Both the position numbers and the translations under genes were made by a program. Below the pieces are notes generated by a model. The model was not told the DNA's origin. It saw only the letters and a program-made list of their open reading frames with translations, and ran no database searches. This document shows positions 30,516 to 32,701 of a stretch of DNA of 56,686 bases, in pieces (the first letter of the stretch is position 1; each line of letters begins with the position of its first letter). This DNA is from Planctomycetota bacterium (GTDB lineage: Bacteria; Planctomycetota; B15-G4; JADJEK01), in contig JBGAIQ010000036.1 of NCBI GenBank assembly GCA_044225365.1, positions 1 to 56,686 on the forward strand. Direction: 5' to 3'.

Positions 30516-31226
30516 TCACTTCTTCTCGTGCGTCTCTTCGACGACGATCTGCGCGGTCACGCGCTTGATGTCGTCGAGGACCTGAGTGATGCCGAACACG
30601 TGCGGGACGGCGCGGATCAGGTTGCCGTTGTTCGCATTCGAGATCTTGAGCGTGCCGAAGCCCATCATCAGCTCGAGCGCATCGCCGACCTCCTTGCTGA
30701 AGGTCACGTTCTCGACGGGATAGGAGTCGGCCTCGCCGATCCACTTGTCGTGGATCACGACGTGGTTCGGCTCGACCACGATCACGAACGATCGGCGATC
30801 GACCCAGACGAACAGGAAGATGATGGCGAAGATGACGGAGTGCAGGAGGTAGAACGTCGAGTTCATCGTCGGGTCGAGGGCACCGAAGAAGTGCAGCACG
30901 TTCCCGAGCTTCCCGTAGGTATGCAGGATGAACCCGGTGATCACGACGCCGAAGATGATGATCACGGTCTTCTGGAATCGAAGGTCGAAGAACAACACGA
31001 GGTAGTTCACGAACAACGTCCAGAGGTAGACGCGACCGATCGCCGCCGCATCGAACTTCCACAGCGCGAGGGCGATGTAGGCGATGAGGCCCAGAATGGC
31101 CGTCGGATACATCAAGATGGCCAGGTTGAACGGCCGGATCAGCGTGTGCTCGCGGTCACCGAGGCCCTGCCGGATCGCGGTCAGGTTGTCGATGATGCCC
31201 AGGAACCGATAGAGCGGGTTCGACAT
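30516..31226 (-). CDS. Membrane protein with a C-terminal bacterial PH-like domain
   Basis: About four TM helices, then LELMMGFGTLKI typical of bPH domains; GGAG upstream. Confidence 0.7.
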   Translation of the reverse strand: MSNPLYRFLGIIDNLTAIRQGLGDREHTLIRPFNLAILMYPTAILGLIAYIALALWKFDAAAIGRVYLWTLFVNYLVLFFDLRFQKTVIIIFGVVITGFILHTYGKLGNVLHFFGALDPTMNSTFYLLHSVIFAIIFLFVWVDRRSFVIVVEPNHVVIHDKWIGEADSYPVENVTFSKEVGDALELMMGFGTLKISNANNGNLIRAVPHVFGITQVLDDIKRVTAQIVVEETHEKK

Positions 31227-31477
31227 CTCACGTCTCCGAATGCGGAAAGAGCGACCGCGGACTTCGCGGCAAACGGGAATCAGAACGAGGACTCACGACC
31301 CTGCCCGATCCAGGGGCCGTGTCTACGCGCGGTGCGCGCCGACTGTTCAATCCCCGCACCGAGTCATGGTGACTGGAGCGGGTCGGACGATCACCGCGAC
31401 TCCCTCGATCCTAGGGAAGTCGCTCGCGAGATTCGTACGAGTTCTTCGTCGTCGACTTCGGGCAACGAGGAAGAAGA

Positions 31478-31554
31478 TGGTAGCGGAGGCCGGACTCGAA
31501 CCGGCGACACACGGCTTATGAAGCCGTTGCTCTAACCAACTGAGCTACTCCGCC
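31478..31554 (-). tRNA. tRNA-Met (CAT), probably elongator
   Basis: GGCGGAGTAGCTCAGTTGGTTAGAGC-A-ACGGC-TTCATAA-GCCGT...GGTTCGAGTCC..CTCCGCT-A-CCA; lacks the initiator features (C1 mismatch, three G-C anticodon-stem pairs). Confidence 0.93.
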
Positions 31555-31568
31555 CCAAAGGGCGCGCC

Positions 31569-31597
31569 AGGATGGCGATGCAGGTCTTGGAAGTCAA
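31569..31597 (-). promoter_or_regulatory. sigma70-type promoter for tRNA-Met
   Basis: TTGACT-17 bp-CATCCT followed by a GC-rich discriminator (GGCGCGC). Confidence 0.6.
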
Positions 31598-31696
31598 GCG
31601 ACGAGGATCGCTCGAAACGGATTCCGCCTGCGGATCGCGCGGCTCGCGGTTCGAGCGACGCATCGCGACACTCCGCGACACGTTTTTCGCGTCGCC

Positions 31697-31725
31697 TTGA
31701 CCACCCCTAGGGGACGGGATATAAA
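31697..31725 (+). promoter_or_regulatory. Near-consensus sigma70 promoter
   Basis: TTGACC (31697-31702)-17 bp-TATAAA (31720-31725). Confidence 0.75.
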
Positions 31726-31730
31726 CGACG

Positions 31731-32030
31731 GGTCGCGCTTTTCGATGGACACAACCCCAAGAGATTGGGGACGTAAGCAGTGGCTTCCATCGAGTGCGCG
31801 ACGCCGAGGCCGAACGAAAGCGATCCACCCGAACCGAAGGGTCGCACGAAGTTCGGCGAACGAAGCCTCCTTCGATCTTTGAAAAACCATCCGGCCTAGG
31901 TTGTGAGCCAACACGTAAAACACCAACACCATTCCTTCTTCTTCTTCCCCTTTTCCCGAAATCCTTGGCCGGATGCCTTTCTCCCCGACGAGCGCCCGCG
32001 GAATCCTCCGCGCGGCGCTCGCTCTTTTTC
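31731..32030 (+). ncRNA. Candidate structured non-coding RNA of unknown family
   Basis: Lies between the promoter and a terminator; several nested stems; boxA-like GATCTTTGAAAA at 31874-31885; no convincing CDS. Confidence 0.55.
31989..32030 (+). terminator. Intrinsic terminator
   Basis: CGAGCGCC-CGCGGA-ATCC-TCCGCG-C-GGCGCTCG followed by CTCTTTTTC. Confidence 0.7.
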
Positions 32031-32066
32031 ATGCCCCTCATTGGCCCCGAATCGATCGCGGGCCGC

Positions 32067-32627
32067 TCAGCGACCTCTCCCGCGGCGACCCCCGCGGCGA
32101 ACGAGCGCGAGCATTGGATTCGCGACCTGATCCTCGCGCGGCGCCGGGGTGAGTCGTTCGCGCCGCAGGCGATCCCCGAGACACAGTGCGATGGCGAGCG
32201 CGTCGGTCACGTCCAGCGGGCAACCCTTCTCGATCCCGGCGAGTTCCGCCCGCACCCAACGTGCGACCTGGCTCTTGGTCGCGTGACCTGCGCCTGTCAC
32301 GCTCTTCTTCACTTCGCTCGGGGTGTACTCGTGGATCGGGATGCCCCTCTTGCCGGCCGCGAGCAGGGCAACGCCACGCCCCTCGCCGAGCCCGATCAAC
32401 GACGCCACATTGCGCCCCTGGAAGACGCGCTCGATCGCGATGGCTTCGGGCCGATGCATCTCGAAGAGTTCATGGAGACGCGCCTCGATGACCCCGAGTC
32501 GCTGTGCGAGGGCCTGGCGGATGTCGAGGCGAATCGCTTCCGCGGCGACGAGTCTTCGTGGCCGGGAATCGTCGACGAACCCGACACCGACGATGCGGGT
32601 ACCCGGATCGATGCCGCACAAGATCAT
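32067..32627 (-). CDS. ruvC: Holliday junction resolvase RuvC
   Basis: GIDPG, AIERVF, EYTPSEVKKSVTGAGHATK.QV, DVTDALAIA. Confidence 0.95.
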   Translation of the reverse strand: MILCGIDPGTRIVGVGFVDDSRPRRLVAAEAIRLDIRQALAQRLGVIEARLHELFEMHRPEAIAIERVFQGRNVASLIGLGEGRGVALLAAGKRGIPIHEYTPSEVKKSVTGAGHATKSQVARWVRAELAGIEKGCPLDVTDALAIALCLGDRLRRERLTPAPREDQVANPMLALVRRGGRRGRGR

Positions 32628-32701
32628 CAGGGACCTTCGATAAAGGTTGGGGCATCACGGCGTGAACCACGAACGCGGGCGCGAGTATACTCGCCATTCC
32701 C

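Follow-up and report, generated by a model that had tools for sequence, protein, structure and literature searches.

A conserved small RNA family of planctomycete bacteria with a predicted pyrimidine-rich loop and, in some lineages, an rRNA-type boxA

The C-rich unpaired loops of 6C RNA and RsaE/RoxS are the functional seeds of these small RNAs (sRNAs), which in Gram-positives act without Hfq. Sites for the Nus factors are known in rRNA, in a few mRNAs and in CRISPR arrays, whose leaders carry boxA. To our knowledge, almost no regulatory RNAs have been described in Planctomycetota. The alpha-r14 sRNAs Cuckoo, CcsR and NfeR1 carry CCUCCUCCC loops, as they are presented in PMC4615179 and PMC8034643, and non-rRNA boxA sites include one in the 5' untranslated region (UTR) of suhB (Baniulyte et al. 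2017, PMC5725501), in a survey that left out non-coding RNAs. Here we describe an element in the intergenic gap between a tRNA-Met(CAT) gene and ruvC in a 56,686-nt stretch of DNA from a Planctomycetota bacterium (assembly GCA_044225365.1, contig JBGAIQ010000036.1; "the window", to which all coordinates refer unless a contig is named). The element encodes a genuine small RNA, conserved among planctomycete bacteria and absent from RNA databases; its predicted structure exposes a pyrimidine-rich loop, which is probably a binding site for messenger RNAs or for a protein.

The conserved part of the element is a module of ~95 nt (31888-31975) made up of an outer stem, P1, a hairpin, P2, and a single-stranded C/U tract (..CUUCUUCCCCUUUUCCCG). 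A C-rich unpaired loop is what it has in common with 6C RNA and RsaE/RoxS, from which it differs in architecture, in host phylum and in the lack of an Rfam match. Like Y RNA, it has paired 5' and 3' ends that close a large pyrimidine-rich loop; Y RNA was rejected as an identification, as no Ro/TROVE gene was found in the genome and no Rfam match was obtained. The likeness to Cuckoo, CcsR and NfeR1 lies in a multi-copy sRNA with an exposed C/U-rich loop resembling an anti-Shine-Dalgarno (anti-SD) sequence, which in one bacterial family (f3 below) reads CCUCCUCCCCC; phylum, fold and motif all differ from those given for these RNAs in the same two sources (PMC4615179, PMC8034643), and a single large tract, CUUCUUCCCCUUUUCCCG, is displayed here without an Rfam match. 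Scans with Rfam 15 gave two tRNAs only over the whole window at the gathering cut-off, nothing on the element in 31400-32200 at E up to 10, tRNAs only at 20 homologous loci, and nothing at the paralogue, wide-type and f3 loci (see below) at E up to 1. Membership in any Rfam 15 family (6S, 6C, RsaE, Y RNA and alpha-r14-type sRNAs among them) was thus rejected for want of a covariance-model match, and the proposal of the initial annotation, which had been made from the sequence of the window, that this is a non-coding RNA new to Rfam holds in all four scans. No description of the RNA or its motif was found in the literature searched, supplementary tables such as the boxA tables of PMC5725501 lying outside that search.

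The module consists of the following parts:

31888-31900, plus strand: P1 5' arm, CATCCGGCCTAGG, which pairs with 31963-31975
31899-31903, plus strand: junction GGUUG, invariant in type A and nearly so in the wider family
31903-31914, plus strand: P2 hairpin, GUGA-GCCA-ACAC, with one A.A mismatch in this genome (from the alignment)
31915-31921, plus strand: junction GUAAAAC, conserved in the alignments
31922-31929, plus strand: variable linker, with indels of 2, 3, 4 and 5 nt among orthologues
31930-31958, plus strand: single-stranded C/U tract, CAUUCCUUCUUCUUCUUCCCCUUUUCCCG, containing the family-invariant block CUUCUUCCCCUUUUCCC
31963-31975, plus strand: P1 3' arm, CCTTGGCCGGATG (from sequence and covariation)

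The order is therefore P1, GGUUG, a 4-bp P2 with a variable loop, GUAAAAC, linker, C/U tract and P1'. P1 has 13 positions, 12 pairs and one U.U, and its arms enclose 62 nt; the predicted mean unpaired probability is 0.09-0.10 for the arms and 0.89 for the C/U tract. This tract is the most conserved part of the module and is almost invariant across the subtype that we call type A, where it reads CAUUCCUUCUUCUUCUUCCCCUUUUCCCGA in the alignment. The stem of P2 is kept while its loop varies in length, and at two of its pairs UA is replaced by CG in f3. Since the indels of the orthologues measure 2, 3, 4 and 5 nt, the linker is not coding, and the element as a whole holds no conserved open reading frame (ORF).

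BLAST against 40 relatives found the element at 88-91% identity in 10 of the 11 other genomes of its bacterial family and at ~80% in three further families (f4, f5 and f2), with conservation that starts exactly at a boxA motif just upstream of P1 and stops just past the 3' stem arm. R1, a covariance model of the type-A module, places type A in 38 of the 42 genomes of the order, which is the whole class among the genomes compared (f1 10/11, f3 14/16, f5 5/5, f2 1/1, f4 7/8). Type A is present in every one of the 19 genomes with a completeness of 90% or more, and the four misses are 70-88% complete. In 37 type-A sequences, 98.8% of 604 alignment cells are standard pairs, compared with 24-47% in slid controls, and 9 of the 17 pairs have changed on both sides; P1 taken by itself is paired in 98.7% of cells, with changes on both sides at 7 of its 13 pairs. 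The long stem and its loop are conserved with covariation. The two branched domains of the leader are specific to this lineage, the sequence of domain 1 being unconserved outside this genome in the BLAST comparison with the 40 relatives. A divergent tRNA-Met(CAT) neighbors 20 of 28 type-A loci (f1 8/10, f4 6/6, f2 1/1, f3 5/6, f5 0/5), a setting of stable RNA that agrees with the rRNA-style reading given below.

R1 also gives weaker second matches in many genomes. A scan of GTDB species genomes for the invariant 20-mer returned at least 118 stretches, mostly in metagenome-assembled genomes labelled Planctomycetota or Phycisphaerales; among those listed, R1 matches 86 of 100 such loci, and the loci without a match, which bear unrelated labels such as Clostridia, Bacillus and Methanosarcina, look like chance pattern matches. 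A second covariance model, R2, describes a wide type with the order GCCGGGGG, UUG, UCCG-loop-GGAC, GUAAAAACUU, GACUCUCCUUCUUCCCCUUUUCCCG, AAGUUU, CCCCCGGC and a U-rich tail, in which a third helix, P3, not evident in type A, closes the tract. Over 61 sequences of the wide family 94.5% of 993 cells are paired, against 71.4% in shuffles, and 17 of 18 pairs have changed on both sides, with slid controls at 31-57%. R2 matches 22 of 151 genomes in an even sample of the phylum (18 of the 95 of high quality), in about ten families outside the class. The window element (R1, 92.9 bits; R2, 30.9 bits) carries P1, GGUUG, P2, GUAAAAC, a C/U tract ending in CCCCUUUUCCCG, and P1', and is one of five family copies in this genome. 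The other four are:

C95:57564-57654, minus strand: paralogue
C40:71997-72081: paralogue
C63:48635-48726: paralogue, with its tract expanded into UUUCCCU repeats
C40:178707-178801: paralogue

The element had been called an orphan, which it is not: judged from these comparisons, it belongs to a previously undescribed, multi-copy, phylum-level family with strong covariation. In the copy on C63 the UUUCCCU units stand between an intact P1 and a P3-like frame and have the look of a natural multiplication of the tract. A nusB gene (G000:C40:69022-69393) lies ~2.6 kb upstream of the copy at G000:C40:71997-72081. Two records labelled 'Candidatus Saccharibacteria' contain clear type-A-like members, L148:1567-1656 and L161:842-941 (72 and 82 bits with R1), in AT-rich surroundings; they could be mis-binned, they could come from a planctomycete of low GC content, or the host range could be wider.

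Evidence at the RNA level comes from sequencing runs. Among 22 runs listed, half or more of the sampled words occur in four: two DNA runs and two sludge metatranscriptome runs from one study. Within the region 31000-32700, the RNA library of run X3 yielded contigs at 31744-31912 and 31883-31987 without a mismatch, and that of run X4 a contig at 31785-31985 with one mismatch, which bridges both P1 arms. The contigs start at 31744 and 31785 and end at 31985 (X4) and 31987 (X3), which hints weakly at a 3' end near 31986. The flanks at 31000-31455 and 32026-32700 have no RNA-library contig, while a DNA run covers all 30 bins; these uncovered flanks count only as a control against DNA carry-over and as a weak hint of the 3' end. 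Run X11 matches the tRNA only, at 90-95% identity.

The same data bear on whether the locus might be what remains of an rRNA operon that has lost its rRNA, or whether the assembly collapsed here and dropped an rRNA gene between the stem arms. A promoter, a boxA and a flanking stem are arranged as in rrn operons, several contigs of relatives end at the element (G005:C2:1-104, for example), and in run X1 the DNA contigs are interrupted within the invariant tract, at 31925-31954. However, the contig of run X4 spans both arms, the ~60-nt loop recurs in 38 of 42 genomes (this one and 37 others) as the most conserved part, there is no similarity to the rRNA leader past a 12-mer, and full 16S and 23S genes lie on contig C6. 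We therefore reject this explanation, which is hardly conceivable in the face of the spanning contig, the homologues' loop and the rRNA genes on C6, and the view that no rRNA gene belongs between the arms is borne out. The breaks, which resemble those at rRNA and tRNA genes, are better ascribed to a core that is near-identical between co-occurring species and so tangles assembly graphs. In practical terms, this near-identity breaks metagenome assemblies at the locus.

Frequent G-U pairs (at one P1 pair, G-U in 19 of 36 rows), the U-runs that follow P1 in f4 and f5 and the direction of the promoter all indicate that the RNA is read from the plus strand. ORFs do overlap the element (plus strand, 31903-32130; minus strand, 31594-31932), and GGUUUUUC comes after the stem when the minus strand is read. 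Alternatives to a free plus-strand RNA were considered: a leader that acts in cis, a gene for a small protein, or a feature of the minus strand. The downstream ruvC is convergent, however, the indels of 2, 3, 4 and 5 nt break any frame, and the G-U pairs become A.C mismatches on the minus strand, where the reverse model scores 22-30 bits against 93-114 (for a model built on the plus strand). We regard these alternatives as very improbable, and dropped the small ORF and the minus-strand RNA (stem plus GGUUUUUC) on account of the indel lengths and the G-U pairs.

The intergenic gap measures 512 nt and contains every element that the initial annotation had listed; all of its motifs were found in place, as were the divergent tRNA-Met and the facing ruvC. 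From one neighbor to the other, the features around the module are:

31478-31554, minus strand: tRNA-Met(CAT), divergent conserved neighbor (Rfam scan)
31680-31696, plus strand: T-rich stretch directly 5' of the -35 box, a possible UP-like element (from sequence; the function is conjectural)
31697-31725, plus strand: promoter, with -35 TTGACC at 31697-31702, a 17-nt spacer and -10 TATAAA at 31720-31725 (sequence and f1 conservation)
31732-31802, plus strand: leader domain 1, branched, with outer stem GTCGCGC (31732-31738) / GCGCGAC (31796-31802) (minimum free energy (MFE) and centroid folds)
31742-31749 and 31786-31793, plus strand: inner stem of leader domain 1, TCGATGGA / TCCATCGA (sequence and fold)
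31810-31856, plus strand: leader domain 2, with outer stem CCGAAC / GTTCGG and inner stem GCGATCC / GGGTCGC (folds; spanned by RNA-library contigs)
31857-31876, plus strand: small hairpin before boxA, overlapping its start (MFE and centroid folds)
31874-31885, plus strand: boxA of rRNA type, GATCTTTGAAAA (sequence match to rRNA boxA)
31976-31987, plus strand: 3' tail, CCUUUCUCCCCG, where the RNA-library contigs stop (weak hint of a 3' end)
31989-32029, plus strand: putative intrinsic terminator, a G+C-rich hairpin (31989-32021) followed by UCUUUUU (TCTTTTT in the DNA) (sequence and fold)
32067-32627, minus strand: ruvC, convergent, the next gene downstream

Transcription would start near 31732. 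The arrangement TTGAC[CG], exactly 17 nt, TAnnnn, behind a T/A-rich stretch, was read by eye in 11 of 11 f1 loci, with the T/A-rich runs at the equivalent position in the f1 orthologues. A consensus promoter scan omits TTGACC-17-TATAAA because its rule demands T as the last base of the -10 box, which here is A. In the MFE fold of 31726-32032 the two leader domains reappear together with the small hairpin, the long stem and the putative terminator; its energy is -123.5 kcal/mol, compared with -94.4 +/- 5.3 in shuffles (z -5.5; none of 100 shuffles as good). In the window element, CCUUUCUCCCC comes after P1, and the hairpin with UCUUUUU at 31989-32029 is separate from it; the f4 and f5 orthologues have AUUUUUU directly after P1. 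In a permissive Rfam scan the terminator weakly resembles a ctRNA terminator (22 bits, below cut-off), and read on the minus strand its hairpin is not followed by a U-run. Elsewhere in the gap, an imperfect palindrome at 31602-31665 gives weak matches to a miRNA model on both strands, which we take as chance. The space from the tRNA gene to the sRNA promoter holds a small hairpin with a T-run (31663-31689), a T-run that is at the same time the T-rich stretch upstream of the promoter. Upstream of the tRNA, a minus-strand ORF (30516-31226, 236 aa) has no Pfam match and by eye looks like a membrane protein.

The initial annotation had matched GATCTTTGAAAA to boxA of rRNA leaders, and the comparison with this genome's own rRNA bears it out. 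The element's 12-mer shares 11 of 12 bases with the 16S-leader boxA, GATCTTTGACAA, and is identical in all 12 to the 16S-leader boxA of a relative (G001). The pattern GATCTTT[GT]A[AC]AA occurs at four sites in the 6,530,937-base genome (65% G+C): the 16S leader, a second leader copy at a contig end, the 16S-23S spacer, where boxA reads GATCTTTTACAA, and the window element, so that the three other sites all belong to rRNA. Across nine genomes (this one and eight more) in three families, the rRNA leaders have GATCTTTGA[AC]A followed by an arm of the processing stem. Here GATCTTTGACAA is followed at 0 nt by GTGGATAGTCTGC, which pairs with GCAGACTATCCAC 3' of the 16S gene; in the element the distance from boxA to the helix arm is 2 nt. 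In five relatives GATCYYTGAMAA has 17 sites (7 in rRNA operons, 5 at the element, 5 elsewhere) and the reversed-pattern control has none. The five sites elsewhere (G001:C24:57455, G007:C190:44167, G007:C331:816, G005:C1:202767 and G010:C250:7732) may mark further boxA-regulated transcripts. As a sequence, GATCTTTGAAAA is a genuine rRNA-type boxA, and Nus binding to it is predicted. With an rrn leader the element shares this near-identical 12-mer, an upstream hairpin, a strong promoter and an untranslated RNA; it differs in that its helix encloses ~60 nt rather than rRNA, in the lack of any similarity between the two leaders beyond the 12-mer, and in the existence of two families without boxA. 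As to the rRNA operons themselves, the second, identical 16S leader with boxA at the contig end (G000:C26:76) suggests that there are probably at least two of them, one collapsed in the assembly. Upstream of the 16S gene on G000:C6 (L003:3230-3330, minus strand), a ~60-nt tandem duplication holds TAGAATGGCCCGCCCCTGAGACAGGAGTTTCAGGAGGTTTGGACGGCGGTCC twice and may be a duplicated promoter and leader segment.

The distribution of boxA follows lineage. All 11 f1 loci have GATCYYTGAAAA after a leader of ~40-160 nt with one or more hairpins. In f2 and f5 a promoter and a leader hairpin are followed by GCTCTTT[ATC].AA 10-15 nt before P1, the GCTCTTT variant occurring in 6 of 6 loci, and a hairpin 5' of boxA is found in f1, f2 and f5 orthologues alike. 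The f3 leaders share CUGCCCGRC instead: in L056-L061 and L068-L074, CUGCCCG(A/G)C is found 55-60 nt before P1, and a -10 box of the TAGTCT type ~100 nt upstream, without boxA. Within the wide family a convincing boxA, at -13, is found in two related loci only (L168 and L151). On these sequences the boxA leader is a lineage accessory, present in three families and absent in two. Like the boxA of CRISPR leaders, that of the element lies outside rRNA operons and would recruit the Nus complex. The same can be said of the suhB 5' UTR site as PMC5725501 presents it, and our site differs from both kinds, which belong to mRNAs or long arrays, in that it precedes an sRNA module of ~95 nt. The f2/f5 variant is close to GYTCTTTAANA, the boxA consensus given in PMC5725501, which is gamma-proteobacterial.

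We favor, with roughly as much confidence as doubt, a trans-acting RNA whose working part is the anti-SD-like tract and which is made from an rRNA-style, Nus-modified transcription unit; its targets, Nus binding and the effect of boxA are conjectural. An RNA that pairs with mRNAs is favored because the tract is predicted to be unpaired and carries anti-SD-like words: the f3 tract has ACCUCCU and the wide-type tract CUCCUU, both found in the 16S 3' end, ACCUCCUUUCU. The product would be a non-coding RNA of about 255 nt, from ~31732 to ~31987, and is proposed to be abundant. In it, P1 and P2 would hold open a single-stranded C/U tract of ~30 nt resembling the anti-SD end of 16S rRNA, and the exposed tract may pair with purine-rich, SD-like stretches of mRNAs and lower their translation or stability. 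Since no Hfq gene (PF17209) was found in this genome, which is 94% complete, the RNA would act without Hfq. The strong promoter, the structured leader and the boxA directly 5' of the P1 arm would make up an rRNA-style unit in this lineage. The Nus complex guards untranslated RNA from Rho and aids the formation of long-range helices in rRNA, roles that would suit a transcript in which a 13-bp helix has to be closed around a tract rich in C and poor in G. NusB (whose gene is present, as noted above) and NusE would load on boxA and modify RNA polymerase, the modified polymerase would help the long-range P1 to form and keep Rho off the rut-like tract, which is untranslated, C-rich and G-poor, and boxA would tie the output of the RNA to stable-RNA synthesis. 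Pairing with pre-rRNA was tried as another role of the tract and rejected: the best duplex with the 5.85-kb rrn transcript has -27.7 kcal/mol, compared with a mean best of -28.4 in 150 random genomic chunks, 55% of which are as good.

Several observations weigh against this reading. A search for exact complements of at least 10 nt, which was not centred on start codons, gave 605 sites, mostly GAA/AAG coding repeats and the antisense strands of the family itself, and no clear target. The invariance of GGUUG, GUAAAAC and an 18-nt tract exceeds the usual need of seed pairing, which favors a protein partner. No boxA-like site lies within 260 nt upstream of P1 in any of 7 f4 or 13 f3 loci, the latter having long leaders, and boxA-like words near the wide type are as frequent downstream (9/69 loci) as upstream (7/69), without enrichment; boxA is therefore dispensable for the module. 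The rRNA boxA of f5 is unreadable, neither 16S nor 23S having been assembled in any of the five f5 genomes. The evidence for RNA consists of contigs from one study, which give no strand, ends or level, and the covariation alignments were fitted to the models and are thus biased towards structure.

The initial annotation had raised the possibility of an rRNA-leader mimic or Nus-factor decoy, an abundant boxA RNA that would soak up NusB/NusE and so tune rRNA antitermination. The boxA is (near-)identical to that of rRNA and unique outside rRNA operons, the RNA libraries contain RNA that includes the boxA region, and the boxA-then-stem layout copies the 16S leader. The selected, conserved part is the core, however, and not boxA, which is missing in all 7 f4 and 13 f3 loci though the f4 rRNA leaders keep GATCTTTGA; genera of f1 tolerate GATCTCTGAAAA and GATCCTTGAAAA while their own rRNA keeps GATCTTTGACAA; and boxA is half-buried in the predicted structure, with an unpaired probability of 0.57. 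Because the core persists where boxA is absent, a decoy or mimic as the main function is quite improbable, and this part of the earlier interpretation does not stand; the parts that do are that the RNA is new, that its boxA is genuine and that the C/U loop has a central place.

A protein rather than an mRNA may be what the tract binds. The module could be the RNA part of a ribonucleoprotein (RNP) or a protein sponge, in which a pyrimidine-tract-binding protein sits on the C/U tract and the junctions and is titrated or guided; Rho, ribosomal protein S1, a KH-domain protein or a cold-shock protein would be candidates. Distant families share the 18-nt tract, GGUUG and GUAAAAC without change, five copies are present in this genome, one with the UUUCCCU-expanded tract, and no long complementary target was found. 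Rho primary sites bind YC dinucleotides, rut sites are C-rich, G-poor and unpaired, as the tract is, and boxA is an anti-Rho device, so that the boxA link would suit a Rho theme. No candidate protein was identified, however, and no protein gene is a conserved neighbor, the neighbors being tRNA-Met and, here, ruvC (for the wide type the listing of neighboring ORFs is unreliable, high-GC DNA being rich in spurious ones); Hfq and Ro/TROVE were not found, and the anti-SD-like words of the tract fit base pairing equally. We consider this alternative possible, though doubtful. A bolder form of the favored model, which we think unlikely, sees the locus as a miniature rRNA operon, in which a stable-RNA promoter is shared divergently with tRNA-Met, a Nus-loaded boxA stands before a leader-trailer helix, and Nus serves as chaperone and anti-Rho shield; the product, a free anti-SD mimic or a Rho/S1 sponge, would rise and fall in dose with ribosome synthesis.

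These findings define, from sequence alone, an RNA family whose motifs hardly vary and whose covariation is strong; one of its subtypes is present in 38 of 42 genomes of a bacterial class and is contained in sludge metatranscriptome libraries. The link to boxA is its unusual part: an sRNA that borrows the antitermination and chaperone machinery of rRNA would, if this is true, widen the purpose of that machinery. With ~110 nt, boxA and the 13-bp long-range helix also offer a small, naturally occurring system in which to examine whether distant arms of a helix are brought together with the aid of the Nus complex. If the miniature-operon model were true, growth rate would be linked through this RNA to translation initiation, or to termination, on a global scale in the cells of a whole class.

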